The notes: generated by a model not told the origin, from the sequence alone. Shown: positions 42,728 to 64,000, counted from the stretch's first letter. The stretch: DNA of 64,000 bases from Nitrosopumilus sp. (GCA_965223425.1 CBDCWS010000001.1:40572-104571), one strand, 5' to 3'. A program made the numbers and translations.

Positions 42728-43348
42728 CTATATCTCCATTCGGTTTGCGACGTATTTATAGAGGGTTCGAATCTCGTCGCTGGCTTTGCTGTTAGGGTCT
42801 AACTCTTGGACTGTTTTACCGTCGATAAACACGTGGGAGAATAGGATACGTTGACCGAGCGTACAAGGGGCACAGTCTGTATCATAAATCTCAACAGCAC
42901 GCCTCGCCTGCAAGAGCATAGAAGTCCTAGCGGGCACTGCGTTGAATATCACACTCGACGGTACAGACGCAAAGTTAGTGATTTGGACTGTTGATCCGAC
43001 GGATTGCAAGTCAAGGATGGCAGGCTTGCAAGGGATGAGTGCGAAGGATGCGGATCTAGCAGCATCAAGTGCAGCGGATTCAGTATGTGGAGCAGTGTCA
43101 AGGATCGCTAAAGTCGCACCACTCTGCTCCGCTGTATGTAATATGTCCGGTAAGCGCGAGGAGTGGGCAGAGATCACGACGGGTGAGTCGGCATCTCGGG
43201 TATCACCCCATTTAGCAGCACTCGCCTGTGGATCAAGATCAATAATAGTAGTAGTATGACCGGCTTGCTCCGCAGCAACAGCGAGGTGAACAGCAAGTGT
43301 GGTCTTCCCAGTTCCACCTTTTCGACTCAAGATGGCTAAAGTCTTCAT
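42728..43348 (-). CDS. parA: Short ParA/ParF-type partition ATPase
   Basis: Deviant Walker A KGGTGKTT, IDLDPQAS, ILDTAP; no N-terminal HTH. Confidence 0.9.
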   Translation of the reverse strand: MKTLAILSRKGGTGKTTLAVHLAVAAEQAGHTTTIIDLDPQASAAKWGDTRDADSPVVISAHSSRLPDILHTAEQSGATLAILDTAPHTESAALDAARSASFALIPCKPAILDLQSVGSTVQITNFASVPSSVIFNAVPARTSMLLQARRAVEIYDTDCAPCTLGQRILFSHVFIDGKTVQELDPNSKASDEIRTLYKYVANRMEI

Positions 43349-43365
43349 ATTTACCTCCAAGTCTA

Positions 43366-45287: not shown

Positions 45288-48200
45288 TTAATCAATTAAA
45301 GCATTCAGAGCATCAAAAGCTTTTTGAAATCGTTCAAAATCCGAATCAGACAATTGATTCTCAAGGTTACCGACATTTTTGCTAAAATATAGAGCGGGCG
45401 GCAGATGTGTGAATTTTCTATTGTTTGGCATAGGATTGTTCTCAAAGTGTTCTTTGAGACGTTGTGAAATACAGGGATGCCCCACTTTAATATCTGTTAT
45501 TCTTAAAGATGTCCCAAATTCGTCATTTAACAAACTTAAATAGAAGTCCGGTTCAAACATATCTTCAATATCTGCCTCTTTGTTATTTGCAAAATTAGCG
45601 AAAGTTAGAACTTGACTTTTGTCCAGTGGCGATTCACCATTGTAAAAATTCTTAATTTTTTGCTTATCTCTTGTACTGCCATCGGAAATTCGGGCCACTC
45701 TCTAAGACAAGATTGTGGTATAATATCCATCTACTTGAAAGGAGTATCCGATGGCGAAACGCAAACGAAGAAACTTCACTCCTGAGTTTAAAGCATCAGT
45801 TGTTCTTGAGGCTCTCAGTGGTGAAAGTTCCCAAGCAGAATTGTGTCGTCGACACAACCTCAGCGATGAACAACTCTCGAAGTGGAAGCGACAGCTCCTT
45901 GAAAATGCGGCGAGTCTCTTTGAACCCGCTGATAAGCAGTCTGATGCCTCTGCCGAGCGCATTGCGCACCTTGAGCAACTCGTTGGTAGGTTAACCGTGG
46001 CCCTGGACATCGAAAAAAAAGCCTCGACTTGGTTGAGCTAAGCTCAAGGGAGCAACGAGAAATGGTTGAGGCGTTACAGGCAGATTATTCCGTGCGACAG
46101 ATCTCTGAGACACTGGGGTTCACCCGAAGCAATCTCTATTATCACCCGAAAAGCGACCCGTGTGAAGAAGTCCTCCGGGAGGAAATAGAGCAGTTAGCAC
46201 TACGCTACCCGAAGTATGGTTATAGGCGTATCACAGCGTTGCTACTGCGTCTGGGATACCCCGTTGGGTATAGACGCGTCGCCCGATTGATGAAATCTGC
46301 GAACTTGTCGGTTGCTGTCAAACGGGTTTGCTGCCAAACCACGAACTCCATTGATGATGTGCGTCCGTGGGTGAATCGTCTTCAGACCCTTGAAGTCTCC
46401 CGATGTGATCACGTCTGGGTGGGCGATATTACCTACGTCCGTCTCAAAGGACACTTCATCTATGTTTCTCTGCTCATGGATGTCTTCACTCGTATAATCA
46501 GAGGGTGGCAGATCAGCCAGCACTTGACGCAATCTCTGACGTTGAAACCCTTAGAGGCGGCATTACGTCAAAGTGTCCCAGAGATCCATCATTCGGATCA
46601 AGGCGTTCAATATCTTTCAAATGCCTACATCTCATTGCTCAGGCATCATGACATTGAGATTTCCGTAGCCCGCCGCGGGTGTCCTTGGGAGAACGGATAT
46701 GCTGAAAGACTTATCCGCACCCTCAAGGAGGAAGAAGTTCACCTCAATGACTATGAGGACATCCACGAAGCGAGAGCCCGCATCGGGCATTTTATCACAC
46801 AGGTGTATCATCAGAAACGCCCTCACTCGGCGTTAGGGTATTTGACACCTGTCGAATTTGAGCGAAAAAACTTGTCTTAACTTTGCTTATTTTTTGGTCT
46901 GAATTACCGTTGGCACTTCACTCTGTTTCTATAGTCAACTAGAACAGCAACATTTAAATCTGAATTAGCACTAATCAATGAAACAAAGGTTGGTACTTTA
47001 TCAATACCACCTACTGGGATAATAGACCATCTGGGATTAAGCCCTTTTTCCCCACGCTTAATCAGAAGATCAGACATAATCTGTATGTAAATTTGGTCTG
47101 ATGATCCTTCTACTAACAGATTATTCGGGTTAATAAAAAGAGATTGTGAAACATCATAACCTAATGCTGCTTGAATTGGGAATAAACTGCCTTCACCAAC
47201 TTCAAATACTTGATTATCGACCTTAGTTCCTGATTCTTCATAATTTAAACTGCCACTTCCTATATTCAGGCTTAAATTTTCAACGATTCTTACCTCCTGA
47301 AAATTATTTTTACGATTCATCATGAATGGTGAATGGGTTGTGTAAATAATCTGAAAATTTTGTGAAGCAATTTTCCTAAAATAATTAACTAAATCCTCTT
47401 GTGCTTTCGCATGCAAAGATAATCCTGGTTCATCTAATAGTAATACAATACCTTTATTACCACGTATATTTTCCCTAAACTGCAACAAGAAAGAGAAAAA
47501 CCAAATAAATCCAGCAGACTCTGTGCTAAAATGTTTCTCAGTACCTGATTTCTTATCTTGCAATAGTATCCAAAGATTCAAGCCACTATCCATACCTCCA
47601 GGATCACCTGAATCACCCTCTTGGATGTAGAATCTCATATTGTAATTACTGTGTTGGGTCCAAAAATTGAGTATACTGTCTGCAATAATTTCTAGATTAG
47701 ATTGAGTTTGATCAAATTTATATCTACGATTCATTGAACCTCTTGTATTTATCAATACATCAGGTGATGCGCCAGCCGATCGGAGAGCATCTAAAATCAG
47801 TTTATCTGATTCATTTGGGTTCCGTTGCCGGGTTGAAAGAGTATTCAGATTTATACTACCTGTCATTTGAGGATAATTATTCAGATAAATAAAAGTTGGC
47901 AACTGATTTTTCAAAACATTATTAAAAATGACGGTTGGCAAAGTATTTGTAGTAATACTTAAAAGTATCTCTCTATATTTTTGAGGGAGTTTAGGAGGTT
48001 CTTCCCCGAAAATAGAATTCACTAGATGATTTGCCATTTCTACATTATCTTGTATATCAGAAGGAACATCTACTTTTGACCCCTTGATAACATTTTCCAA
48101 AATAGTACTAATATCAATGTCTAAATCACTTACCTCTAGAAGATTACCGTTATACCCAATTTTTACCGCCATTGTTTGTTTATTACCCTGTAAACATTCA

Positions 48201-48484
48201 CATGTTGTGAATTTATGCACGAGTTCAATATCTTCTGAATCAAGGGTATAAAAGGCATGTACAACTTGGTTTTCAATTTCAGGTCGATGTACATAATCCA
48301 GTGGGCGTACATCATCTACACCAGAATACACTCCATCTATTGGATTTAAGTTATAAAGTGCTTTTAGTATAGCAGTCTTACCAGATTGATTTTTACCCAC
48401 TAAACAGGTAACATCATCTATATCAAACTCGCCAGAATCATGAATGCACAGAAAATTTGTAATACGCACTTTAATAAGTTTCAT
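45288..48484 (-). pseudogene. OLD-family-like ABC ATPase + TOPRIM nuclease (647 aa when restored), split by IS3
   Basis: GKNQSGKT, LLLDEPG, YTTHSP, LLVEGSSD, IPVGG..VLVD; the frame VDYRNR-DKQKIK is restored on IS removal; visibly AT-rich. Confidence 0.85.
45672..46920 (+). mobile_element. IS3-family element with a 4-bp TSD (CTCT); orfA 45751-46041 and orfB to 46880, A-run -1 frameshift site
   Basis: TG..CA imperfect IRs; CTCT at 45668-45671 and 46921-46924; WVGDITY, HHSDQG, WENGYAE. Confidence 0.95.
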
Positions 48485-52219: not shown

Positions 52220-52909
52220 TCATACCTCTTTTTTAACCGTGTAGCCGAGTGCGATGACCTTCGCGACAAGTGCTTCGGCTTGAAATTGGTCAAGCGGGTC
52301 GCGTGGGTTATCTTCGGCATCAAGCGACATCGCTTCCACCGCGGCTTGTGCCGAGACATAGTTGACACCGATATAGGCTTGTGTCGTCGAGACGTTCTTG
52401 TGTCCGAGCAGCTCCTTGACCATATAGATGTCGTTACACTTGTCATAAAGCCGTTGTGCGAAGGTTTTCCGCATCGTGTGTGTCGCGAGTTTACCCGTGA
52501 GACCTGCGGCGCGAAACGCTGCGTCGAGTATTTTATGGATGGCGTGGCGTTTCACCGCTTTATCTGTGCCTTTGCGAGACGGAAATAACGGCATATCGGG
52601 ATGCAGGCTGCCAAAGTATGTGCATTGCCAAGCAATAATCTCCGCAATCGCCTTGCGGCCATCAGTGTTGACAGGGATCGTCCGACTGGTTTCACCGCCT
52701 TTGACGATCGACTTATCAAACTGAAAATCGCTCACGGGTTGACCGTTCTGGTAAACATCACTGACTTTGAGGGCAAGCAGTTCTGAAACCCGCCCGCCAA
52801 TCGACACACCGAGCATAAACAGACCACGATTCCGCTTCGCGTATGTACCCTGAAACGCATCACGGACTTTGCGGATCTCATCATTTGTTAGGGGTCTTGT
52901 TCCCTTCAT
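52220..52909 (-). CDS. Short tyrosine recombinase/resolvase (catalytic domain only), intact
   Basis: GGRVSE, IVKGG, THTMRK, LLGH, TQAYIG. Confidence 0.9.
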   Translation of the reverse strand: MKGTRPLTNDEIRKVRDAFQGTYAKRNRGLFMLGVSIGGRVSELLALKVSDVYQNGQPVSDFQFDKSIVKGGETSRTIPVNTDGRKAIAEIIAWQCTYFGSLHPDMPLFPSRKGTDKAVKRHAIHKILDAAFRAAGLTGKLATHTMRKTFAQRLYDKCNDIYMVKELLGHKNVSTTQAYIGVNYVSAQAAVEAMSLDAEDNPRDPLDQFQAEALVAKVIALGYTVKKEV

Positions 52910-53847: not shown

Positions 53848-53952
53848 TGATTTTCAAGGAGGCATCGCTGCGTAAGAAAGTGGCGAGGCTGCGGAAGTTG
53901 GCAAGTGCTGTTTTCAAAAGCAAAACAGAACGTAACCTTTTGCGAGCCGTGC

Positions 53953-54093
53953 AGAGATGCTGCTGCCGTTGGGCATTCCCGAAGGGAAACATCATCTCTA
54001 TGTAGCCTCACAACCTCGCGACTTTCTAATCCCTGCCTCACAGAAAAGTCGTAGTTTCCGTTCGGCTCGCCCGAAGGGAAACCACGACTTTTC
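53953..54093. repeat. Two REP-like hairpin units sharing CCGTT.GGC...CCCGAAGGGAAAC
   Basis: Units at 53953-53999 and 54043-54093 (17-bp outer stem in the second). Confidence 0.7.
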
Positions 54094-54101
54094 AGATTGG
54101 G

Positions 54102-54956: not shown

Positions 54957-54993
54957 TGATTTTCAGGGACGTGTCGCCACGCCCCTGCCCTCA

Positions 54994-56040
54994 TTAGATA
55001 AAACCTTCTTCCTTGAGGCTGACAAATATCCCGTCACCGATGATGACGTGATCCAAAACCTTGATCCCGATGTGGTTGCCCGCCTCTATCAATTGCTTCG
55101 TCGTCTGAATATCCTCTTGGCTCGGCCGTGGATCGCCCGATGGGTGATTATGAACAAGCACGATGGTATTCGCCGATTCCTCAATGGCAAATCTGAAAAT
55201 CTCGCGCGGGTGAAAGACACTGGCATTCAGCGTTCCCTCAAAGACGGTGGACTCGCCAAGTAGTTTGCCCCACGTCAAATCGCCCGCAAGATCGCCCGCT
55301 CTGCCTTTCGTCGTCACGTTGCCCTTCGTGTCAAGACACAACACACAAACGATCTCCTTGTGTAGATACCGCATTTTTGACATCATCAGGTCGGCAACAT
55401 CACTCGGCGCGGTGATCTTATCCTTCTCGGCGTGGCAGCGTGCGAGTCGCTTGCCCAACTCCAACGCCGCGACGATCTTCTCTGCCCGCGTTTTGCCCAT
55501 GCCCTTGACTTTCTGTATGTGCTTGGCTGTTGTCCCTGCTATGCGTGCAAGGTTGCCCTCGTAGGCGATCAGCACGTCCTCAGCGATAGACACAGGCGCA
55601 CCGCTAACTTTTGCCATGAGTTCAGGATCTGTCAAATACTCAATCGGTCGCGCCGCGACTTGTGCCTTGACTTCGGCGAGAATTCGCAGACTTGCCGATG
55701 CCTCCGCTTGCTTTTGCTTGCGTTCGGCTTCGGCTTGCTGATGCGCTGGCGAGTCGCCCCTATGATCTCTGACCTCTTCCACGAACCCGTCAGGACTCAC
55801 AGGTTCATAACGCCGATCCATGAACACGGCGCGGTCTAAGTCCTCAAACGTCATCGCCGAGTCGTCATTGAAATGGACTTTGATCGTTTCGTGTTCCGTG
55901 CCGTCTGTCTCGTCTATCTCGGAGAACCCCGAAAACTTGACGATCTGGATTTCTGTCCCTTCTTCGTTCTTAAAGACACAACCCACATCAAACAAGCCCC
56001 AACCTTCCGAAAAGTGGTCTTGTGAGAGTGCGATTTTCAT
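54994..56040 (-). CDS. radC: RadC-family JAB/MPN protein with HhH and an extra N-terminal domain
   Basis: LTDPELMA, KGMGKTRA..IVAALELG, GTLNASVFHPREIF, VHNHPSGDPRPSQED. Confidence 0.9.
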   Translation of the reverse strand: MKIALSQDHFSEGWGLFDVGCVFKNEEGTEIQIVKFSGFSEIDETDGTEHETIKVHFNDDSAMTFEDLDRAVFMDRRYEPVSPDGFVEEVRDHRGDSPAHQQAEAERKQKQAEASASLRILAEVKAQVAARPIEYLTDPELMAKVSGAPVSIAEDVLIAYEGNLARIAGTTAKHIQKVKGMGKTRAEKIVAALELGKRLARCHAEKDKITAPSDVADLMMSKMRYLHKEIVCVLCLDTKGNVTTKGRAGDLAGDLTWGKLLGESTVFEGTLNASVFHPREIFRFAIEESANTIVLVHNHPSGDPRPSQEDIQTTKQLIEAGNHIGIKVLDHVIIGDGIFVSLKEEGFI

Positions 56041-56147
56041 GATACAATATCCTCTGTAGTGGCTTCACTACGTTATGGATAGGCGCGGGGTGTCTTCCCG
56101 CGCCTGCCCGCGTGAGAGAGGCGCGTCCCGAAGGACACACACTTGCC

Positions 56148-56933
56148 TCATTCGTCATCAATATGCACTTCGTAGCCTGCCTCGATGTATAACTTACTCA
56201 CACCGCGCCGTCTGAGTGCCTCCTTCGTGGTGTAGATACCACCGGCGTTATCACAGAGGTACGTCAGGTGTCCAGCCCGACCCGATGCGCTCCAATTTTC
56301 GCCAGACGCGTCGTCAAATATGACATGGACTGCAATCTGCTCCGGCGTCGGATCAAATTCAATCAGCGTTGCTGCGGGATCGGTTTTCGCACAGCATTCA
56401 ATACATTCGCCGACAAAACCGTGCATGAGTTTGCGAATGTTGAAAAGTGCCGGGACGTGTGAGGCTTGCAAGTCAGCGAAGTGTGCATCGCATAAAATAA
56501 ATGTGCCGACCTCTGCCTTCGTGAATGTGTTCATCACATTTACAAGGATCATTTGTGAGTCCTCCTTTATTCCGATCCAAAGCCGTTCATCGGGTTCTAT
56601 TTCCTGTTCTTCGACTTCTTCTGGGGTGTAGCCGTCGGGTGGAAATTCTTGCCTGTAGATGTGGATTGTGCAGAGTGTCATCTTATGCCCCCACGCATAT
56701 CGCTGAAACCAGCAATCCAGTGTCCCCGCAGTCATCAGCGTGCCAACCACGCCATCGTTTTCGAGTATATCCGCAATTTCATGTGCAGGATAGAGTGCGA
56801 ATTCAACGTCCTTGCCCCCTATCTCTGTCAAGACCTCGTTCATTGCGAGGGTGACGGGATCAGCACCGATCCCGTCGATATGTGCCTGTGTCACAGGTAT
56901 CTCTTTACCAAGCAGTGAGTTGTAGTCAAACAT
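56148..56933 (-). CDS. Hypothetical protein
   Basis: AGAGG RBS; coupled to the upstream gene. Confidence 0.65.
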   Translation of the reverse strand: MFDYNSLLGKEIPVTQAHIDGIGADPVTLAMNEVLTEIGGKDVEFALYPAHEIADILENDGVVGTLMTAGTLDCWFQRYAWGHKMTLCTIHIYRQEFPPDGYTPEEVEEQEIEPDERLWIGIKEDSQMILVNVMNTFTKAEVGTFILCDAHFADLQASHVPALFNIRKLMHGFVGECIECCAKTDPAATLIEFDPTPEQIAVHVIFDDASGENWSASGRAGHLTYLCDNAGGIYTTKEALRRRGVSKLYIEAGYEVHIDDE

Positions 56934-57306
56934 GATACACCTCTTTGAGTTCTTTGAGTTGCCTGTCTATCGTGGATATATCCGCACGAATACTGCGCAT
57001 CAGACTCGGAAAGGCTTGCGCTTGTGCCTTACGGAGCGACATCAGTAAATACAACCGATCTCTTTGGAGTCGGCTTTTCTTTTCTTTGGCTGTGCCGACA
57101 AACATAAAATCCTCGTTGCCTTTGAAAATCTTGGACTTTTGGATCAGCACGCCTCCAATCCCGCTTGGAAACCCGAATAAAAGATCGCGCAAATCCGACT
57201 GTGAAATGTTACGCAACTGTTTTGCCGCGGTACGCATACTCCACCATGTCCCGATCCCTAAAATCCGCTCCAAACGTTGCTGTGTATACCTTGCCATAAT
57301 ACTCAA
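56926..57306 (-). CDS. Hypothetical basic protein
   Basis: Overlap-coupled ORF. Confidence 0.55.
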   Translation of the reverse strand: MSIMARYTQQRLERILGIGTWWSMRTAAKQLRNISQSDLRDLLFGFPSGIGGVLIQKSKIFKGNEDFMFVGTAKEKKSRLQRDRLYLLMSLRKAQAQAFPSLMRSIRADISTIDRQLKELKEVYHV

Positions 57307-57608
57307 TTAACCTCCATGCCTCTTGACTTCATGCTGTAGGTAGTTGATAGCGTGCTTGAGGCGTTCTGTATAGACAAATCGCTCTCTGGATCCTTGCTAT
57401 CCATCGGCACGCTCACAGCCTCGTGAAGACAGCCTAACGCCTTTTGAATGTTCGTTGCCGTGATCTTCTTATGACGCATTAGAATGCTCCTGTAGTGGAA
57501 GGCATCGGTGGCGTAAGGTAAACAACCTTTAGGTGGTTTTCTACCTTTTCGCCCCGATTCAGGTTTAAAAACCTCGCCCTGTCCTGTCTCGGTTATTGGC
57601 GTTGCCAA
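57303..57608 (-). CDS. Hypothetical protein
   Basis: Overlap-coupled ORF. Confidence 0.5.
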   Translation of the reverse strand: MATPITETGQGEVFKPESGRKGRKPPKGCLPYATDAFHYRSILMRHKKITATNIQKALGCLHEAVSVPMDSKDPESDLSIQNASSTLSTTYSMKSRGMEVN

Positions 57609-58360
57609 ACCACCGTGTCCTCGTGTGTGATCTTCACTGTCTTCTTGCCTGCATAAAACTGTAGGTAGAAATCCAATTCCTCTTTATCACCTTCAAGGAT
57701 ACGCTTCGCAGTCCTGCCGTTCACACTGCTCACATGCACCTCACCGGTCGCGGTGTGCAGACTAAAAGGCACGCGCTCATAGACTTTGTAAGGCTCTAAC
57801 ACAAACGTTGCTGGCTCTACGGCTTCACCCGCATCAAAACGTTTCATAAACGCTTGTGCTGCATCACAGAGTTTTGCTAACTGGTAGCCCCCCGGCTTTG
57901 GACACAAATGATAGTAGCAGATCATCTCGCGTGTCTCACGTGTTTGGCGTTTGTAGGCTTCGACAATTGCCCCGCCGTAGTGTCCGCTGTCGCTACTATA
58001 CTGTTTTCTTGGCGACTGTAGACGTTTAAACCAGTTTTCGCCATACAGGGTTTTACGCGTCTCACGTCCCTTGTCAATATCCGCCTGTGTGATGTGCAGT
58101 TCGAGAGGTTCAGGAATCAGGGAAAGTAGCCCCAAGTATTGAAGCACCAACGCCCCGTCTTCGTCTTCCTCGTTCCAGCGCGGTGTCCCTGTGCAAGATT
58201 CGTAGTCGTCTGGCAGTTCTTTGATGCGTTCATCGGATAACCAGATACCGCCATGACCTGCTGTCGAGACGCTGATAACGCCGTCGGCGATACGGTGGTA
58301 GTGTTGAATAGCACCCCACGGGGTTGCTATACGAGGGTAAAAACGATTTTGCGTATTCAT
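57593..58360 (-). CDS. DUF7007-like protein (mobile-element type)
   Basis: TPWG..QH...IADG...VSTAGHGGIWLS..R...W.EED motif; start moved to the ATG with AAGGAG RBS. Confidence 0.7.
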   Translation of the reverse strand: MNTQNRFYPRIATPWGAIQHYHRIADGVISVSTAGHGGIWLSDERIKELPDDYESCTGTPRWNEEDEDGALVLQYLGLLSLIPEPLELHITQADIDKGRETRKTLYGENWFKRLQSPRKQYSSDSGHYGGAIVEAYKRQTRETREMICYYHLCPKPGGYQLAKLCDAAQAFMKRFDAGEAVEPATFVLEPYKVYERVPFSLHTATGEVHVSSVNGRTAKRILEGDKEELDFYLQFYAGKKTVKITHEDTVVWQRQ

Positions 58361-58548
58361 GATACTCCTTGACGGATATATCCGCCCTGTTGTACAATGA
58401 TAGCGAAGGGATAACGCCCCTTCACTGTGATATAGCAATATTTTAGGGTAGGTCTTTGCCTGCCCTAATTTGTATCCGCCCATTACGGATACAATACGCA
58501 AGCGCGGAGTTGAACCGCGCCAAGCGCACCGTCTGCGTTGCGTTGTAT
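58361..58548 (-). promoter_or_regulatory. Multi-hairpin intergenic leader containing a tRNA-like T-arm
   Basis: CGCGG-TTCAACT-CCGCG inside an ACGCAA/TTGCGT stem, followed by four further hairpins. Confidence 0.6.
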
Positions 58549-58549
58549 A

Positions 58550-59059
58550 CTAATACATGTCAATCCCGCGTAGGTATTCCCTGACAATTTCTCGCACAAC
58601 GAGAGAAAACAGGTTATACAGACTGAACCTGTTGCCAAATACAAACTCCAGCCCATCATCGTTGATCAGTTCCTCAACGGCTTCCTCAAATCCCATTGTG
58701 TAGTTGCTGATAGCGTCCATTATCTTGTAAGCAGGATCGTTGCCGTCGGCTATATCAAAGAGGGTTTTGATCCCCTGTGTATTCATGTAGTCAATGACGT
58801 AGCCGTGAAAACTGTTCGGTGGATCGCCGTCAACCCATTTCGCAGACGTTACACGCACATAATCGCCATGCACGCTGTAGTCTTCCAAGTTTTCATCTTC
58901 TGCCACGCCGAATAGCATATTATGAACGTTTGGATCGCCGTTGTTGCGATCTACACATGCCGTGCCAGAAAACACGCTATCAAGTTCCTCGTTTGTCGTG
59001 ATCCCGTTGTCCCATTCAACCGTCACAATCTCGCCAGTGGTAAGTGTCAATCTAATCAT
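58550..59059 (-). CDS. Hypothetical acidic protein
   Basis: AGGAG RBS after a GGCGCG hairpin. Confidence 0.65.
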   Translation of the reverse strand: MIRLTLTTGEIVTVEWDNGITTNEELDSVFSGTACVDRNNGDPNVHNMLFGVAEDENLEDYSVHGDYVRVTSAKWVDGDPPNSFHGYVIDYMNTQGIKTLFDIADGNDPAYKIMDAISNYTMGFEEAVEELINDDGLEFVFGNRFSLYNLFSLVVREIVREYLRGIDMY

Positions 59060-59118
59060 TGATGTATCTCCTGTAAGAAGGACGCGCCCCGAAAGACGCG
59101 CCTCGCTGTTGGTTCGTG

Positions 59119-59351
59119 TTAACTCCTTACCATCCTTACATTGACCTTGAAACCGATTTCCCCAAGCAAAAAATACCGGTGGTGGTTGACGTTATCGTGG
59201 CTGATCCATTCCTTGCCGTTGGGTTTCATGTGTAGTTTCGTAAGGCGTGCCGTGATGCGATACGCTTTGCGATGGATAAATTCATCGTCTTGACGAAAAC
59301 AGGCGCAAAACTGTTCCCGTGTCTGCTACACTTAAAAATCGCTTCATACAT
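59119..59351 (-). pseudogene. Small gene with a probable 1-bp deletion
   Basis: TAATG-coupled start; MYEAIFKCSRHG continues in a shifted frame QFCACFRQDDEF...RMVRS*; span is 233 nt. Confidence 0.45.
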
Positions 59352-59539
59352 TATTTATACCTCTTTGCATACTCTTTGGCGTAGATATTGCGTTCCTCTA
59401 ATACCTTTTGCCGTTCCCGCCAGTTCTCTGTTAGCATTGTCATTGTTGCCCGATGATTGTAGGATTCGATCTTCTCTACCAATTCCCGTTTAACATCTGC
59501 CATGCCCGTTCTTGATGTTGGTATACCTTCATTCGCCAC
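59351..59539 (-). CDS. Hypothetical protein
   Basis: Coupled ORF. Confidence 0.55.
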   Translation of the reverse strand: MANEGIPTSRTGMADVKRELVEKIESYNHRATMTMLTENWRERQKVLEERNIYAKEYAKRYK

Positions 59540-59867
59540 GTTCCAATGCCTGCTTGACTTGTGCGACTTTTAGTAACTTGACGGATTTGCGCACCGCGAC
59601 GATGTTCGCCTCTTTGGCTTTCAGCGTCACAGATAACCCGTTGAATTTCGGAAAATGATCGCTCGTTGTCGTGAAAAAGACGCGCACCTGACCGTCTACG
59701 AGTCTAACCGTCTGCGCCGTGACTCGATAGCCGATCCGATAGAATTTCCGATTGTGCGTTTTCCCGATGTAGTGTGGATTATTCGATTGGATAAATCCAA
59801 GCACGTCATCAGGATTGTCTTTTGTATACTGCTTGCCGTAGGCTGCTAAACCTGTGATTTGTGTCAT
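59529..59867 (-). CDS. Hypothetical basic protein
   Basis: GGAG RBS before MTQITGL. Confidence 0.6.
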   Translation of the reverse strand: MTQITGLAAYGKQYTKDNPDDVLGFIQSNNPHYIGKTHNRKFYRIGYRVTAQTVRLVDGQVRVFFTTTSDHFPKFNGLSVTLKAKEANIVAVRKSVKLLKVAQVKQALERGE

Positions 59868-60058
59868 GATAATCTCCGTTGTGAGTAGGGACACCGTGTT
59901 ATCACCTTGCCCCATGTTCTGAAAACATAAACACGCCTGTTACGGATATTGCGAAACCTGCGCCCCCACCCTTGATAGCGTGTATTGATCCAAAACTCCA
60001 GTCGCCGTTGGCGTTGCGCGTTCAATGCGAGATGCATATAAAAGAATTGCTGATCCAT
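59864..60058 (-). CDS. Hypothetical Arg-rich protein
   Basis: ATGA overlap with the next gene; follows a GGCGCG hairpin. Confidence 0.4.
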   Translation of the reverse strand: MDQQFFYMHLALNAQRQRRLEFWINTRYQGWGRRFRNIRNRRVYVFRTWGKVITRCPYSQRRLS

Positions 60059-60105
60059 ACTTCATCCGTTTTAAATGTGGCGCGCCCTGTGGACGCGCCC
60101 TGTCG

Positions 60106-60495
60106 TTATTTCCAATCCTCTTTGTAGACTTGCCGTAACGCGTCAAAACGCGATTTCATGTGTGGCAGGTTCTGCAATAAGCCGTCATCGACATCGCCGT
60201 TGTGAAAATACCACGATGCCGACTGCCACAAACAGCCGTTTTCTACGCTGTGGCATTTATCAGGGACTATATACCCAACCCGCTTATTCCGTGCGCGATT
60301 CATCACCTTATCAATCGCTCGTTTCTTTTCCGCTGGCACGCGCTTGATGTGCTGATCCGTTAGCATTTCATAGACCGCGTCCTTGCTATCAGCAGAAAGC
60401 GATTTATAGAACGCTTTGCGACTCGTATAGTCTAATGAGAGGTATAAACGCGTTGCTAAACTTTTCGACTTGATAGATCGTGTGTCAATGCCCAT
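60106..60495 (-). CDS. Hypothetical protein
   Basis: GGAG RBS. Confidence 0.6.
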   Translation of the reverse strand: MGIDTRSIKSKSLATRLYLSLDYTSRKAFYKSLSADSKDAVYEMLTDQHIKRVPAEKKRAIDKVMNRARNKRVGYIVPDKCHSVENGCLWQSASWYFHNGDVDDGLLQNLPHMKSRFDALRQVYKEDWK

Positions 60496-60531
60496 TATGA
60501 TCTCCGTAGGTGTGGACGCGCCCGTTGATCG

Positions 60532-60675
60532 TTAGTTATCACCGCGACGGACACATCGGCGTAGCCGTTGCCGTAAACGCTCGGATCGCTCGCGGCGTCG
60601 TTTATACAATTCATACCGCGACAAGACAATGCCCGTCGCGATCAAAAAAGTCATTGCGATAAGTGTATAAATCAT
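60532..60675 (-). CDS. 47-aa membrane peptide with an Arg-rich tail (not in the ORF track)
   Basis: GAGG RBS; MIYTLIAMTFLIATGIVLSRYELYKRRRERSERLRQRLRRCVRRGDN*. Confidence 0.6.
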   Translation of the reverse strand: MIYTLIAMTFLIATGIVLSRYELYKRRRERSERLRQRLRRCVRRGDN

Positions 60676-60689
60676 CGTGTTACCTCTCG

Positions 60690-61034
60690 CTACATCCATG
60701 AACAAATGTCAATCGGAAAGTCGATCGGATCGCTGGGTGCGACGTCTAAAATGACGTGACCTGTGGTATAAATCCCGTTGATCCGCCACGCCTCAATATG
60801 TGCCTGTGTCGCGGGAATTGTCAAGCCTTCGACCTCTACGGCTGCCACAACGCGATCGCGGTATTTCTCGCCAAGTGTGTTTGTTTTCCACTCGCTCCAC
60901 GTCGTATAAACGCGTCCGTCGTAGTTTGTGTCACCGTCCATCGTGATCGTTGCCTCGTGATATTCATTCATACACGCGGGACACGTGCAACATACCTGTA
61001 TCGCGCGACCTTCTTCTGATCTTGTTTCTGGCAT
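60690..61034 (-). CDS. Hypothetical protein with a CxCxxC motif
   Basis: GGAGG RBS; VCCTCPAC. Confidence 0.6.
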   Translation of the reverse strand: MPETRSEEGRAIQVCCTCPACMNEYHEATITMDGDTNYDGRVYTTWSEWKTNTLGEKYRDRVVAAVEVEGLTIPATQAHIEAWRINGIYTTGHVILDVAPSDPIDFPIDICSWM

Positions 61035-61088
61035 TCGATAAACCTCCAAAATAGGACAGGCGCGCCCCGAAAGACGCGCCTGTTATTG

Positions 61089-61319
61089 TTAGTCTTCATC
61101 AACCCAAACAACGTGATGATTAATGAGGGTAAACCTTTCCACGCCAGCGAGTCGTAAACAATTCAGCGTCTCGTAACGCGTGCCGTTACCATCAATCAAA
61201 CGGATAATTTCACCTGTCGCGGCGATCTCGGCTTGCCAATTCTCGCCTGTGTATCCGTCGTCGGCAAAAAATATCTGTGCCTCGCATTCCTCTGGGATTG
61301 TGCAAAATTCAATTGCCAT
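61089..61319 (-). CDS. Hypothetical protein
   Basis: GGAG RBS before MAIEFC. Confidence 0.6.
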   Translation of the reverse strand: MAIEFCTIPEECEAQIFFADDGYTGENWQAEIAATGEIIRLIDGNGTRYETLNCLRLAGVERFTLINHHVVWVDED

Positions 61320-61375
61320 TGTGATAATCTCCAAAATAGGACTGGCGCGCCTTGCAGACGCGCCCATTGTTTGAT

Positions 61376-61567
61376 CTATTTGCTGTATATCTCGATCGTT
61401 TCAGCGTAGAGGGCTTGATATTCTTCTTCGAGTTCCTCAAGTGCGTTCTCCTCTGGATCGTCCTTGAGTTTCTGAATATACAATTCCATCTCCGCGGAAA
61501 GTTCCGTTAAACGACTGATCCGCTTTGTCAGATCACTTTTGCGTTGCATCTGTGCTGTCATCGTCAT
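61376..61567 (-). CDS. Small acidic coiled-coil protein
   Basis: GAGGTG RBS. Confidence 0.6.
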   Translation of the reverse strand: MTMTAQMQRKSDLTKRISRLTELSAEMELYIQKLKDDPEENALEELEEEYQALYAETIEIYSK

Positions 61568-61630
61568 TGTGTCACCTCGTCAAATGAATGAGACGGACAC
61601 AACCGCGCCCGTCTCTGCGTGTTCTCTGTT

Positions 61631-62023
61631 CTACATGCCCAGATCATCAAAATACTGTTCAACCTGTCGGCACGTCTCGGCATCTACCCGCGATCGCACC
61701 TCCTCGTTGCCCCAGTAGCCGATGACCTGTTGCTGTCGTGTATCCAACTCGATACGCGGACCGCCAACGCCTACGATGGCGATAACGCCTCGCAGTTTGC
61801 CATCAGTCCCTCGCGTGATGTCTACATCAAGCAGTGATCCATAATGCGCTTCGCAGTTGCCACATTTACATTCAAAACCCTCGATGCAGTCCTCACAGTC
61901 GCACGGTTCGCTTTTCTGATCCGCTGAATCGCACCACGTGTCTTCATAGCAGAAGTAACCCCAGTGTTCGTTCGCCATGCTGTTTACGCTCTTTTGCAAG
62001 ATTGATCGAATTTCTTGAGACAT
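61631..62023 (-). CDS. Cys-rich phage-type hypothetical protein
   Basis: CDCEDC..CKCGNC; LDVDI..VGVGGPRIELDT..VIGYWG. Confidence 0.65.
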   Translation of the reverse strand: MSQEIRSILQKSVNSMANEHWGYFCYEDTWCDSADQKSEPCDCEDCIEGFECKCGNCEAHYGSLLDVDITRGTDGKLRGVIAIVGVGGPRIELDTRQQQVIGYWGNEEVRSRVDAETCRQVEQYFDDLGM

Positions 62024-62095
62024 GATAGAATATCCTCGTCTGGTAACTAACAGACATTTTCGATAGGCGCGGGATACTCCCCCGCGCCCATCTTA

Positions 62096-62335
62096 TTATT
62101 GGCGTTTATGCCATTGCAGTGCTTGTTTCGCCTCGTGGCATTCATCGGCAACCGCTTTACTCACGATTTCTAACCGCTCTAACGATTCAGCGTCAACGGC
62201 TGAAATGCCCGAATATTCGCTATCAGCGTCTTGCTGGCACGCTTCGTCCATCTTGTTAAGTAGGCTTGAAAGATTTTCAAGTTCCGCTTTGGCACGGCAG
62301 ACGCGCAGGTGGAAGATCGCAGGATAGTTTTTCAT
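62096..62335 (-). CDS. Hypothetical protein
   Basis: ATGA-coupled. Confidence 0.55.
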   Translation of the reverse strand: MKNYPAIFHLRVCRAKAELENLSSLLNKMDEACQQDADSEYSGISAVDAESLERLEIVSKAVADECHEAKQALQWHKRQ

Positions 62336-62874
62336 TGGGATTCTCCTTTGCGTGCTTTCTCGACCTTTATCGCGCTCGCCTCAATCTCGGCAAGCAACTT
62401 AAACACCTCTGCCTCGCCTACATCAAGACTCGACAGACTGAAGGACAGACTACCTAACAACTTATGCAATTCATTCGCAGGCATCGCCTCAAGTCGCTTT
62501 TCAATGTCTAATTTGGGTGGCTTGCGCAGAATTTCATCAACGGTGATCTCATCAAACATCAACGTGATCTCAACGTCTCCTGTGCTGATTGACATCTCAT
62601 TATCAACTTCATCACAGGGAAAATACGCCTTATCAACGGCTTTGCGTCCTTGATCATCAATCCATCTACGGACGATCATCCCGTCACACTTGCCTGTAAA
62701 GAACGCTTTAGCGTCCGCATTCGACATCTGAGGAAATCGCTTTAGCATCTCCGCCACGTCGTAAATCGGAAGATCAACGGCATCACTGCTGCCTTCCTCC
62801 CATTCCGCGACGATGTGAACGCCTAACGCCTTGATCGCTATAACTCTGATCTGTGCTTTGATCTCGGATAACAT
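62332..62874 (-). CDS. Hypothetical protein
   Basis: AGGAG RBS. Confidence 0.65.
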   Translation of the reverse strand: MLSEIKAQIRVIAIKALGVHIVAEWEEGSSDAVDLPIYDVAEMLKRFPQMSNADAKAFFTGKCDGMIVRRWIDDQGRKAVDKAYFPCDEVDNEMSISTGDVEITLMFDEITVDEILRKPPKLDIEKRLEAMPANELHKLLGSLSFSLSSLDVGEAEVFKLLAEIEASAIKVEKARKGESQ

Positions 62875-62914
62875 GCTTTCTCTCCTATAAATGATAAAGG
62901 ACGCGCCTGATCGC

Positions 62915-63226
62915 TTATTCTAACTCAAAACCGATCGCCTTCAAATAAACGGCGTAGGCTTCGGCGACTTGCTTGTGATACATCACGAATGCATCGACTT
63001 CCAAATAACACTTATCAGGAAGATACAGGCTCGCATCCGTCGGATATTGCTTGATCGCGTCATCGCAATCGACGTAACGCTTGTTGATCTCTTTTAACGC
63101 CTGCTGGTAGGTTTTCGCAGGTGTTCTATCTTCTGCCGTCTCCGACGGTGACGAGATCGCTATACACACCGAGACGATCAGCGACACGACGGCGAGACTT
63201 ACGAGTGTATGCACAAAAGTTTTCAT
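62915..63226 (-). CDS. Secreted/membrane hypothetical protein, first gene of the array
   Basis: AAGGAG RBS; N-terminal hydrophobic segment. Confidence 0.65.
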   Translation of the reverse strand: MKTFVHTLVSLAVVSLIVSVCIAISSPSETAEDRTPAKTYQQALKEINKRYVDCDDAIKQYPTDASLYLPDKCYLEVDAFVMYHKQVAEAYAVYLKAIGFELE

Positions 63227-63466
63227 CAGATTGCTCCTTGTTGGTTCTACCGTGCCGTCGCTTGTATGGCACTTGGTAGGTGGACTTGCCTAACCTCTCT
63301 GGGCTGGGGCTGCCTTTTCTTGCTTGATTTGTTCTGGCTTTCGTTGCGCACATTTCCGATAAATGTGCGTCCGTTGGCTGACTTACTAGCGTTTCCCCCT
63401 TTCTCTTTTTTTTTTTTAGACCTTGATTTTCATTGACACCGTTAGCATATCACTATGAGGGTGTCC

Positions 63467-63505
63467 GCTATACCACATTATACCACATTTTTCAAGTTAT
63501 TTCAA
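63467..63505 (-). promoter_or_regulatory. Tandem overlapping sigma70 promoters at the head of the array
   Basis: TTGAAA-17-TATAAT (63505 to 63477, with a TG extension) and TTGAAA-17-TATAGC offset by 10 bp, produced by two 10-bp tandem duplications. Confidence 0.75.
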
Positions 63506-64000
63506 GTTATTTTGTTAGTTTGTTAGGTATTTGTTGCTGTTTTGTTAGTATGTATACCCGAAAAGTGGCAGAAAAGTGGGACAGCGTTGCAAGCACGGAC
63601 GCTGATGTTTAGGGGGTTTTTGGCTTCTGTAGGCGTGATGTTGAATGCTACACAAGCTGTCTTGTGTAGCATTCGGCATCAAACACCGAACACGCAACCT
63701 CGCTTTTCGGAATACTTTCGGCTGGCTGGGCGTGAGAATGCAGAGGATCGGAAAAATGGGACTCCTGAATTTTGGGAGGGGTATCGGCGTGTAGGAAAAT
63801 AACGGGTTTTCCACGCCCGCACGGGGGACTGGTCGTTGAAACGTAAAAATAAGAAAAAAATAAAAAAAAGGAAGAATTGCTTACAGCAGAAAAGAGGATA
63901 TTGGGGTAAATTAGAGGGGTATAAAGTCAAGCGGCACGCGGGTTCGTTCTTACACGGAATTTCATTGTTTTCGGGGTGGAATTGCGGAGGGAAATCCGGT

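Follow-up and report, generated by a model that had tools for sequence, protein, structure and literature searches.

Hairpin modules tied to ribosome-binding sites at the gene junctions of a variable operon in a Poribacteria-associated mobile element: candidate translation-initiation units and homology patches

A 64,000-nt stretch of metagenomic DNA (GCA_965223425.1 CBDCWS010000001.1:40572-104571, labelled Nitrosopumilus sp.; hereafter the window) contains an array of small genes whose junctions are marked by short GC-rich hairpins. These hairpins are strand-specific, stand at fixed distances from the translation signals, covary in their stems, are confined to the array and bound insertions and deletions (indels) between related elements. 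Our preferred explanation, to which we assign a probability of roughly 0.55, is that they are RNA modules that would serve as standard translation-initiation and insulation units and would double as homology patches for the shuffling of gene cassettes. The region would be the variable accessory operon of a mobile element associated with Poribacteria, in which one promoter gives rise to a long polycistronic RNA. Loci of the source contig (L001) and of its relatives are referred to below by L numbers where needed.

The array genes and their hairpins lie on the minus strand, which corrects the initial annotation of this DNA. The same annotation had described a train of small co-oriented genes behind one strong promoter, and this description was confirmed: about 26 minus-strand genes run from 63226 down to 50544, and an independent gene caller run on the source contig returned the same genes. 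The train is headed by a sigma70-like promoter (63505-63477, minus strand, TTGAAA-17-TGnTATAAT, 11/12), the top match across 49-64 kb, followed by a leader of ~240 nt up to the first ATG (63226); the promoter region is kept in relatives. Internal promoter-like matches across 49-64 kb numbered 20, compared to 16.1±3.9 in shuffled sequence, i.e. chance level, and none fell inside a junction module. The array proteins are mostly small, with functions that similarity did not assign. Pfam and PHROGs gave no match for most of them, so the array proteins themselves carry no phage signature. Recognisable products are a DUF7007 protein, a RadC-like JAB protein, a LexA-type helix-turn-helix (HTH) protein, a 229-aa tyrosine recombinase and a ParB-like protein. 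Between two good genes, 59119-59539 has poor coding potential, with open reading frames (ORFs) of 36, 41 and 62 aa, one of them called on the source contig, and may consist of decayed cassette remnants.

Two module designs could be identified. Across five gene-called loci, 35 of the 79 junctions of at least 25 nt hold a hairpin, and 3-16 nt separate it from the preceding stop codon. Hairpin-AUG distances are bimodal: either ~19-26 nt, with the Shine-Dalgarno (SD) sequence in between, or 5-13 nt, with GAGG just 5' of the stem. In class A (~36 cases) the stop codon is followed by 5-16 A/C-rich nt, the hairpin (typically GGGCGCGUCC-UUCG-GGGCGCGUCC), a spacer of ~10 nt, GGAG, ~7 nt and the AUG. 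Its spacers are G-poor (ACUACCUAC, UUCACUUAC or ACCUAAC), and its arms are direct repeats of one 10-mer, self-complementary in RNA via two G.U pairs. In class B (~25-30 cases) the order is different, as (G)GAGG stands 0-2 nt 5' of a GNRA hairpin of 8-11 bp (typically CAGGGGCGCG-GCGA-CGCGUCCCUG), which is followed by 5-13 A/U/C-rich nt and the AUG. The initial annotation had read the junctions as stop, spacer, hairpin, ribosome-binding site (RBS) and ATG; this order holds for class A and fails for class B, whose SD is 5' of the hairpin.

No SD was found between the class B hairpin and its AUG, and this AUG coincides with the start chosen by the gene caller and with the N-terminal start of the integrase alignment. 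At the orthologous integrase start, five elements, the window included, have GGAGG 7-9 nt upstream and no hairpin, and four other elements have GAGG-hairpin-ACACCACC-AUG, with 12 nt from hairpin to AUG. Class B has the structure expected of a split RBS: an SD-AUG gap of more than 20 nt folds into a stable hairpin and leaves a short effective spacing. Automatic gene calls near class B units were inconsistent (L004 12151, L009 9228, L007 13642), with some ORFs running upstream through the hairpin and others beginning 48 nt late, and the AUG 5-13 nt past the hairpin agrees better with protein alignments. Because gene callers mis-start genes by extending ORFs through the hairpin, recognising class B modules improves annotation.

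Each junction of the window was folded in mRNA orientation and its stability scored by dinucleotide-shuffle z. The initial annotation had counted at least ten hairpin junctions; the hairpin junctions are real, and their number came to nine full GC-hairpin junctions plus two half-units. Full hairpins reached z values of -1.7 to -5.3, mostly -2.9 or below, and the half-units, which had also been reported before and proved to be lone arms, gave no fold (z about -0.4). The units, from the promoter downstream, are:

62899-62909, minus strand: half-unit, a lone GGCGCGUCC arm, spacer, GGAG and the AUG of gene 62332-62874; no fold, z -0.35; probably a decayed class A unit minus one direct-repeat arm and the loop
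62024-62095, minus strand: junction module with a 13-bp hairpin at 62062-62092, a small second hairpin and GAGGAUAUUCUAUC-AUG; z -5.1; same subtype as 56041-56147
61568-61630, minus strand: class A junction, GAGACGGGCGC-GGUU-GUGUCCGUCUC hairpin at 61590-61615 with two G.U pairs, then 22 nt including GAGG, and AUG; z -2.9
61320-61375, minus strand: class A junction, GGCGCGUCU-GCA-AGGCGCGCC at 61344-61364, then AGUCCUAUUUUGGAG and AUG; z -2.9
61035-61088, minus strand: class A junction, ACAGGCGCGUCU-UUCG-GGGCGCGCCUGU at 61056-61083, then CCUAUUUUGGAGG and AUG; z -4.2
60496-60531, minus strand: half-unit, a lone GGGCGCGUCC arm at 60514-60523, then ACACCUACGGAG and AUG; z -0.4; its spacer matches full class A units of relatives
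60059-60105, minus strand: junction hairpin, GGCGCGUCC-ACA-GGGCGCGCC at 60079-60099, AUG 13 nt further on, no clear SD; z -3.7; the 64-aa ORF that follows is ATGA-coupled to the next gene
59060-59118, minus strand: class A junction, GGCGCGUCU-UUCG-GGGCGCGUC at 59081-59102, then CUUCUUACAGGAG and the AUG of a 169-aa gene
56041-56147, minus strand: junction before the RadC-like gene, UUCG hairpin at 56121-56140, GGCGCGGG..CCCGCGCC hairpin at 56081-56105, a third small hairpin, then GAGGAUAUUGUAUC-AUG; z -3.7
54957-54993, minus strand: class B junction, UAA-UGAGGG, hairpin CAGGGGCGUG-GCGA-CACGUCCCUG (54964-54987), AAAAUCA and AUG; z -5.3; SD 5' of the hairpin, SD-AUG distance 32 nt linear and ~8 nt folded, gene-caller start at the AUG after the hairpin

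The window's class A units are thus those at 59081, 61056, 61344 and 61590, and the units at 56081 and 62062 form a longer variant in which the hairpin is followed by a small second hairpin and GAGGAUAUUnUAUC-AUG. The two hairpin subtypes, shared flanks, UUCG and GCGA loops and missing U-tails of the initial annotation were all seen again. In detail, GGCGCGTC-N-GGCGCGYC recurs at 59081, 60079, 61056 and 61344, GTCCTATTTTGGAG is common to 61056 and 61344, GGCGCGGG..CCCGCGCCTATC...GAGGATATTnTATC-ATG is common to 56081 and 62062, and none of the array units carries a U-tail. The 8-mer GACGCGCC on the plus strand, which is GGCGCGTC on the coding strand, has seven copies in the 64 kb, all inside 59081-62900. 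The shorter GGCGCG occurs 44 times on both strands, compared to 26.5±4.8 expected.

Several lines of evidence place the function of these hairpins in RNA: the bias of G.U pairs to the sense strand, the UUCG and GNRA loops, the covariation of the stems and the fixed geometry to translation signals. Through their G.U wobbles the window units gain 4-8 kcal/mol of stability on the sense strand relative to the antisense strand. Among the imperfect GC stems of ten loci, 69 have G.U pairs on the sense strand only, against 12 with the antisense equivalent only. The dominant loops are GCGA (n=16, of the GCGA/GNRA type) and UUCG (n=15, with 5 more in an alternative register), and the extra stability of UUCG needs contacts of the ribose 2'-OH (PMC4371310). 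In the covariation test on 23 distinct class B units, which had been selected by their pairing, 93% of cells were paired, double changes occurred at 6 of the 10 pairs, and none of 500 shuffles reached the observed covariation; shifting the partner columns by 1-3 lowered the pairing to 39-64%. Since these units had been chosen by pairing, orthologous junctions were compared as well. The stems upstream of the integrase differ by compensatory changes among orthologues (CAGGTGCGTG/CGCGCACCTG, AGGGACGCG/CGCGTCCCT, CAGGGGGCAG/CTGCTCCCTG), and downstream of DUF7007 and of RadC the hairpin is kept with its sequence altered in compensatory fashion. One stem position keeps its G.U wobble in 17 of the 23 class B units, in a GGGCG/CGUCC context shared with class A. 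A search of 49-64 kb against Rfam (E<=1) gave a chance match only, and no family fits the hairpins.

These observations bear on the idea that the units are double-stranded DNA operators, silenced in the manner of stoperators or KorB sites by the LexA-like HTH or the ParB-like protein. Repeated intergenic sites in one orientation, with an HTH regulator and a ParB-like protein encoded downstream, would suit such a system. However, the stem sequences covary where an operator would be conserved, a 69:12 bias of G.U pairs to the sense strand is meaningless for a double-stranded site, and the fixed distances to stop, SD and AUG point to mRNA. We therefore regard repressor operators as very improbable.

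To describe the specificity of the modules, explicit class A and class B criteria were applied to both strands of ten loci and to block-shuffled sequence. Class A gave 43 sense, no antisense and 3 shuffled matches; class B gave 29 sense matches and none in shuffled sequence. Motif counts beyond the array, as the initial annotation had suggested, gave 0-1 module matches in the other 49 kb of the window, and a single match came from the 30 kb of structural genes scanned in this phage family. As they are nearly absent from both, the modules are, within the sequence scanned, specific to the variable accessory array. For comparison, host repeats of the REP/BIME type are scattered between genes throughout a genome; the part of the replicon covered here is the 49 kb just mentioned. 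Outside it, the window has only long perfect palindromes and canonical U-tailed terminators (e.g. 1015-1052). The view of the hairpins as portable units is borne out: the two designs, each of fixed geometry, return between unrelated genes at dozens of junctions, and do so in more than ten related elements. Pairing of G.U type on the sense strand only, the SD-hairpin-AUG design and conservation across an element family go beyond what had been noted before.

The stem alone is less telling. Exact matches to the class A and class B consensus are very rare among viral contigs (~5 contigs in 2.9 million), and in one metagenome scan the class A 20-mer, a generic GC/UUCG stem, was found as single copies in many unrelated, mostly high-GC contigs, which says little about the distribution of the modules. 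In unrelated genomes, 55 of 122 such occurrences are followed by a U-rich tail and are therefore ordinary terminators. Because the stem is common elsewhere, its sequence is not diagnostic; density, strand bias, lack of a U-tail and fixed spacing are. This raises the question of whether the array hairpins could be attenuators or terminators lacking a U-tract that give a falling gradient of expression, which an antitermination factor loading in the 240-nt leader might override. Elsewhere this stem, when a U-tail follows it, is a frequent terminator, a single promoter with a long leader would be in line with such control, and GC-rich stem-loops in T4-type phages cut read-through strongly in reporters (PMC2839356). 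Nevertheless, the array units lack the U-tract that, together with a GC hairpin, defines an intrinsic terminator, and the host part of the window uses canonical U-tailed ones. Moreover, at least ten serial terminators would silence the conserved downstream backbone (integrase, ParB-like), and class B hairpins lie inside translation initiation regions. Attenuation thus appears unlikely, although it is a better candidate than DNA operators.

Gene content changes at the modules. The backbone downstream of the array is conserved (genes of 91 and 90 aa, the integrase at 80% identity, ParB-like and HTH_7 genes) but the accessory genes are not. RadC precedes DUF7007 in relatives and follows it in the window, and window genes 60106-60495 and 58550-59059, which stand upstream of DUF7007, have their homologues downstream of it in relatives. 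A 178-aa gene of L007 and L008 sits between two near-identical class B modules where L009 and L004 have one module; a 77-aa gene of L008 has its insertion point exactly at the SD/hairpin boundary; and one replacement between close relatives begins 7 nt from a hairpin. In a variant contig of run X5, window position 59080 is joined to 58530 without microhomology, with loss of the SD, the 169-aa gene and 19 nt, i.e. from the hairpin edge up to a point at most 1 nt from the next structured element. Of 182 homology breakpoints over six loci, 62 lay within 20 nt of a hairpin, compared to 11 under a uniform null and 28±5 for random intergenic positions, counts to be read with the reservation that events are not independent and that conserved hairpins can themselves end alignments. 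These breakpoints support exchange at the modules, and not a defined cut site. The two half-units look like the expected leftovers of slippage between class A direct-repeat arms.

The initial annotation had also drawn attention to a recombinase in the same train, which is indeed intact and short:

52220-52909, minus strand: tyrosine recombinase of 229 aa that consists of the catalytic domain; it is the integrase of the conserved backbone beyond the array, 80% identical in relatives

Its catalytic domain is complete, with the expected R, HxxR, H and Y, and it has no core-binding domain. Against Xer proteins it covers residues ~100-280, and invertase models of the FimB/FimE type (~200 aa) align with it from end to end. 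Models of integron integrases reach it over residues 119-190 only and score 37-51 bits, where their cutoffs lie at 265-435. From its sequence, the protein is Xer/FimB-like and not IntI, and its neighbours, ParB-like and HTH_7 genes, suit a function in multimer resolution or integration. Sites of the attC type are imperfect palindromes of 57-141 nt with R''/L''-L'/R' boxes and a GTTRRRY core. The junctions of the array contain no GTTRRRY (1.4 expected), so that the absence of attC cores noted earlier was confirmed, and two RYYYAAC (1.0 expected). Stems measure 8-13 bp, hairpins 20-31 nt and loops or spacers 3-8 nt.

The array resembles integron arrays in its promoterless, co-oriented small genes behind one promoter, its structured boundaries and the nearby tyrosine recombinase. 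It differs in having no attC architecture or cores, in a recombinase that is not IntI and lies downstream in the same orientation, where an integron has it divergent with attI, and in hairpins of RNA type. Thus the integron-like mechanism of the initial annotation is not upheld, and neither is a role of this recombinase at the hairpins, to which nothing was found that links it. Attention to attC-like sites, read as folded DNA by the short recombinase, is understandable in that the enzyme is kept in the same train in all relatives and gene-plus-hairpin indels do occur. The missing cores, hairpins of 20-31 nt where attC has 57-141, variable loops, IntI models that match only the C-terminal ~70 residues far under cutoff, the lack of a core-binding domain, breakpoints without a fixed position, loops and sense-strand G.U pairs that indicate RNA, and neighbours that fit multimer resolution or integration make this scarcely tenable. 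It ranks with DNA operators at the bottom of the rival explanations, below attenuators and, at the head, processing or stability elements.

The last of these gains interest from a second conserved structure in the same transcript:

58361-58549, minus strand: conserved structured non-coding element (~185 nt) in a 189-nt junction, followed by AAGGAG-AUG of the DUF7007 gene
Homologues in relatives: L004 10737-10913, L007 11485-11661, L009 11425-11602, L012 11248-11424, L013 11361-11538

Its consensus fold (58549-58361) has five helices with eight compensatory pairs. It was found in eight relatives, in five of them at full length with 72-74% identity, there downstream of DUF7007, and it is multi-copy, with three copies in L015 and two in L016. 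The first ~55 nt (58549-58495) form a tRNA-like minihelix in which an invariant acceptor-like stem ACGCA/UGCGU is stacked on a 7-bp stem with a 7-nt loop. This loop (UUCGAUU or UUCAACU, the latter in the window) fits the tRNA T-loop consensus UUCRANY. There is no D or anticodon arm, four further hairpins follow in the element, and neither ARAGORN (window plus 15 loci) nor Rfam called a tRNA or tmRNA for the minihelix. A possible role is that of a signal for RNase P/Z processing of the operon RNA. That it is an attP core seems less likely, as the element occurs in several copies and retains the 5' acceptor strand. On the opposite strand of 58361-58549, a promoter-like site (58369-58398) and a terminator-like hairpin (58443-58468) could define an antisense RNA of ~70 nt.

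Processing or stability elements, at which the RNA is cut in the spacers so that hairpins become protective ends and each cistron obtains its own half-life, are the most credible of the rivals, albeit clearly second to our preferred explanation. The T7 early region, repetitive extragenic palindromic (REP) elements and T4 transcripts offer parallels. Sense-strand hairpins right after stop codons, flanked by G-poor unstructured spacers, are in keeping with such a role, as are the conserved minihelix, which could be the RNase P/Z signal, and a beta-CASP/RMMBL nuclease encoded by one relative. Against it, the placement of class B between SD and AUG at a fixed distance is left unexplained, and stems of 8-13 bp are short for classical RNase III substrates. 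Processing is compatible with translation-initiation modules and could be the main role of class A. A more far-reaching alternative, which we hold to be speculative and somewhat less probable again than processing, would be a promoter-less cassette standard defined at the RNA level, made of self-folding plugs of hairpin and RBS in two interchangeable designs, ensuring translation of any inserted gene and supplying homology for trade among phage or phage-plasmid elements. Here the GGGCG/CGUCC clamp with its fixed G.U and the minihelix would mark an RNA-binding or processing factor, encoded by the element or the host, in an RNase P-type punctuation.

Returning to modules for translation initiation, insulation and homology, the mechanism would run as follows. 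Class A would fold directly behind the stop codon and thereby shield the G-poor spacer and the next SD from context-dependent pairing; it would possibly, even probably, also protect RNA ends. Class B would fold between SD and AUG, bringing both to functional distance as a split RBS. Because the modules are near-identical, have direct-repeat arms and stand at every junction, they would act as homology patches at which general recombination or replication slippage could delete, insert or reorder genes. The outcome would be a cassette-like hyperplastic region that does without a dedicated recombinase.

A number of points weigh against this explanation. The insulating role of class A is deduced from position and composition. 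The conserved G.U hints at a specific binding factor, which our explanation does not need; this wobble may equally be inherited, or reflect avoidance of GCGCGC sites, or be a recognition feature. In class B, the GAGG could be incidental and the genes translated by termination-reinitiation coupling, and in some units the GAGG is able to pair weakly into a stem extension. The class B criteria also gave 13 antisense matches, and these criteria are accordingly the looser ones. With regard to exchange, breakpoints within 5 nt of a hairpin numbered 21 over the six loci, compared to 17.9 for random intergenic positions, which is no excess, and precise-cut breakpoints were rejected as not significant. 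The suggestion that genes are gained, lost and reordered exactly at the hairpins consequently holds in part: changes are bounded by modules and cluster within 20 nt, but are not pinned within 5 nt. Selection against gene-disrupting events, together with alignments running through hairpins, would likewise put breakpoints near hairpins.

Regarding the element itself, the window comes from a metagenomic contig of 123,106 bp, an abundant, plasmid-like replicon. Read depth in run X3 is equal and very high (~905-1000x) over the array and over the 12 kb next to it, which places both on one replicon. Elsewhere the window looks plasmid- or chromosome-like, with an ECF sigma factor, an ABC transporter, OEP, ParA, an OLD-family nuclease and transposases. 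The OLD-family nuclease (AAA_15 + TOPRIM) occupies 46904-48484, next to the array-bearing module, and a ParA-type ATPase lies at 42728-43360, inside a 41-43 kb region common to the ~67 kb relatives. The GC content is 0.50 in the array and lower, 0.41-0.43, at 44-50 kb. Past the window's right end, two inverted IS630-type (DDE_3 + HTH_32) copies lie at 4585-7297 of L001; these copies and large WD40-repeat proteins sit 2-9 kb upstream of the array on the source contig.

Homologues of the DUF7007 protein were found only in metagenomes and in metagenome-assembled genomes (MAGs) of Candidatus Poribacteria, and plasmid and phage collections gave matches to its N-terminal domain only. Poribacteria, which are sponge symbionts, are the putative host, an assignment that follows MAG binning. 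Many homologues lie on contigs 66-69 kb in length, among them one at 49x that was flagged as circular, and IMG/VR viral contigs. One IMG/VR contig encodes a primase-helicase, a sliding clamp, a 2690-aa protein, a GH24 lysozyme and tail-fibre and tape-measure-like proteins. Given these replication, lysozyme and tail genes, the ~67 kb relatives are most likely novel tailed phages, and in view of the shared ParA region perhaps phage-plasmids; their phage nature is probable, judged from a few weak-to-moderate matches and IMG/VR membership. With these relatives the window has only the non-structural module in common (49-63.9 kb and 41-43 kb), and all of them carry the same kind of junction hairpins. 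Further genes of the relatives are a beta-CASP/RMMBL nuclease, RNase J/CPSF-like (L016 17263-18801), a protein with a 5-hmdU DNA kinase domain, a marker of thymidine hypermodification (L007 20012-20747), and a Type ISP enzyme of restriction-modification (L004/L009 ~17.1-20.7 kb). A cyanobacterial origin (HIP1) was rejected, with GCGATCGC present only twice in the window. A conjugative leading region with hairpins in single-stranded DNA was also rejected: no conjugation genes were found, the relatives have tail-fibre and lysozyme genes, and the transferred template strand would have A.C mismatches.

Two further non-coding regions were observed. Upstream of the array promoter, ~450 nt (63433-63870) are conserved at the DNA level and non-coding, with counterparts at L004 7090-7466, L009 6998-7346 and L012 6172-6295. 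They contain a T-rich tract, a perfect palindrome with a 21-bp stem (63636-63681) and a conserved block of 120 nt (63751-63869) for which no convincing RNA fold was obtained. Short tandem repeats lie over the promoter (ATACCACATT x2, TTTCAAGTTA x2, TTTGTTAG x3). Possible functions of this region are those of an origin, an operator region or a packaging site. A 254-nt junction (53848-54101, minus strand) precedes the LexA-type HTH gene. It holds two long hairpins that resemble each other and have GUUUCCCUUCGGG..GCC.AACGG in common, and its end, CCUCCUUGAAAAUCA-AUG, is able to pair with the upstream GAGGCAGG; no homologue of this junction was found in the fetched relatives.

If the proposed role is true, a hairpin-bridged SD-AUG module at dozens of genes would be a natural standardised and context-insulated RBS, useful for the design of synthetic operons. 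The arrays also mark where such elements keep fast-evolving genes, probably for host interaction or anti-defence.

Among known systems, mycobacteriophages have start-associated sequences and stoperators, short motifs in one orientation upstream of many starts or in gaps. Those are protein-binding or ribosome-related sequences, whereas the array units are covarying hairpins. The comparison with stem-loop cassettes of phage early regions, made in the initial annotation, is apt, since stem-loop, SD and ATG form modules that bound indels. The closest system is that of the promoter early stem-loop elements (PeSLs) of T4-type phages (Arbiol et al. 2010, PMC2839356; Comeau et al. 2014, PMC4122927). 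Both are repeated intergenic modules of ~50-100 nt with a GC stem-loop (G-T pairs having been noted), SD and start codon. Both are limited to hyperplastic regions rich in small ORFs without homologues (ORFans), with module-bounded indels and replacements, and in both a gene flanked by two modules in one genome corresponds to a single module in a relative. A use of the repeated units as homology for recombination was proposed for PeSLs (PMC2839356). Mini-circles from recombination between units are a further PeSL trait; here, exchange was followed in assembled contigs. However, each PeSL carries a strong sigma70-like early promoter and uses its stem-loop as a terminator, whereas the array units have neither promoter nor U-tail. 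Having no promoters, they are not PeSLs in the strict sense; they also differ in their two geometrically fixed, RBS-tied classes and belong to an unrelated host phylum and element family.

Regarding class B, the counterpart is the split RBS of T4 genes 38 and 25, where an intervening hairpin cuts an SD-AUG distance of 22 nt to 5 nt in one case and one of 27 nt to 11 nt in the other, and translation falls when the stem is mutated (Nivinskas et al. 1999; Malys & Nivinskas 2009, as reviewed in PMC3014915). In both cases a stable hairpin between SD and AUG shortens a long spacing (in the window from 32 to ~8 nt), and some relatives have the hairpin where others have a canonical SD at the same start codon. 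In the T4 cases described there, individual genes are concerned; here, one GNRA-capped module appears, as read from sequence, at ~30 starts of unrelated genes. Regarding class A, C(UUCG)G hairpins were first seen in T4 mRNA (Tuerk et al. 1988, as cited in PMC4371310), and UUCG hairpins have, in that account, been proposed to fold at once during transcription, thereby limiting alternative structures (PMC4371310). Extra-stable UUCG-capped stems in phage mRNA are thus common to both, and class A differs from the T4 hairpins as described there in that it recurs as a unit, keeps its stem sequence and stands at fixed distances from stop, SD and AUG. Were our explanation correct, regulatory cassettes that double as recombination linkers would extend from T4-type phages to an unrelated family, by way of translation and not of promoters. 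What would be new is the principle of T4 genes 38 and 25 as a reusable module, with PeSL-like behaviour without promoters, in an uncultured element family of sponge symbionts.

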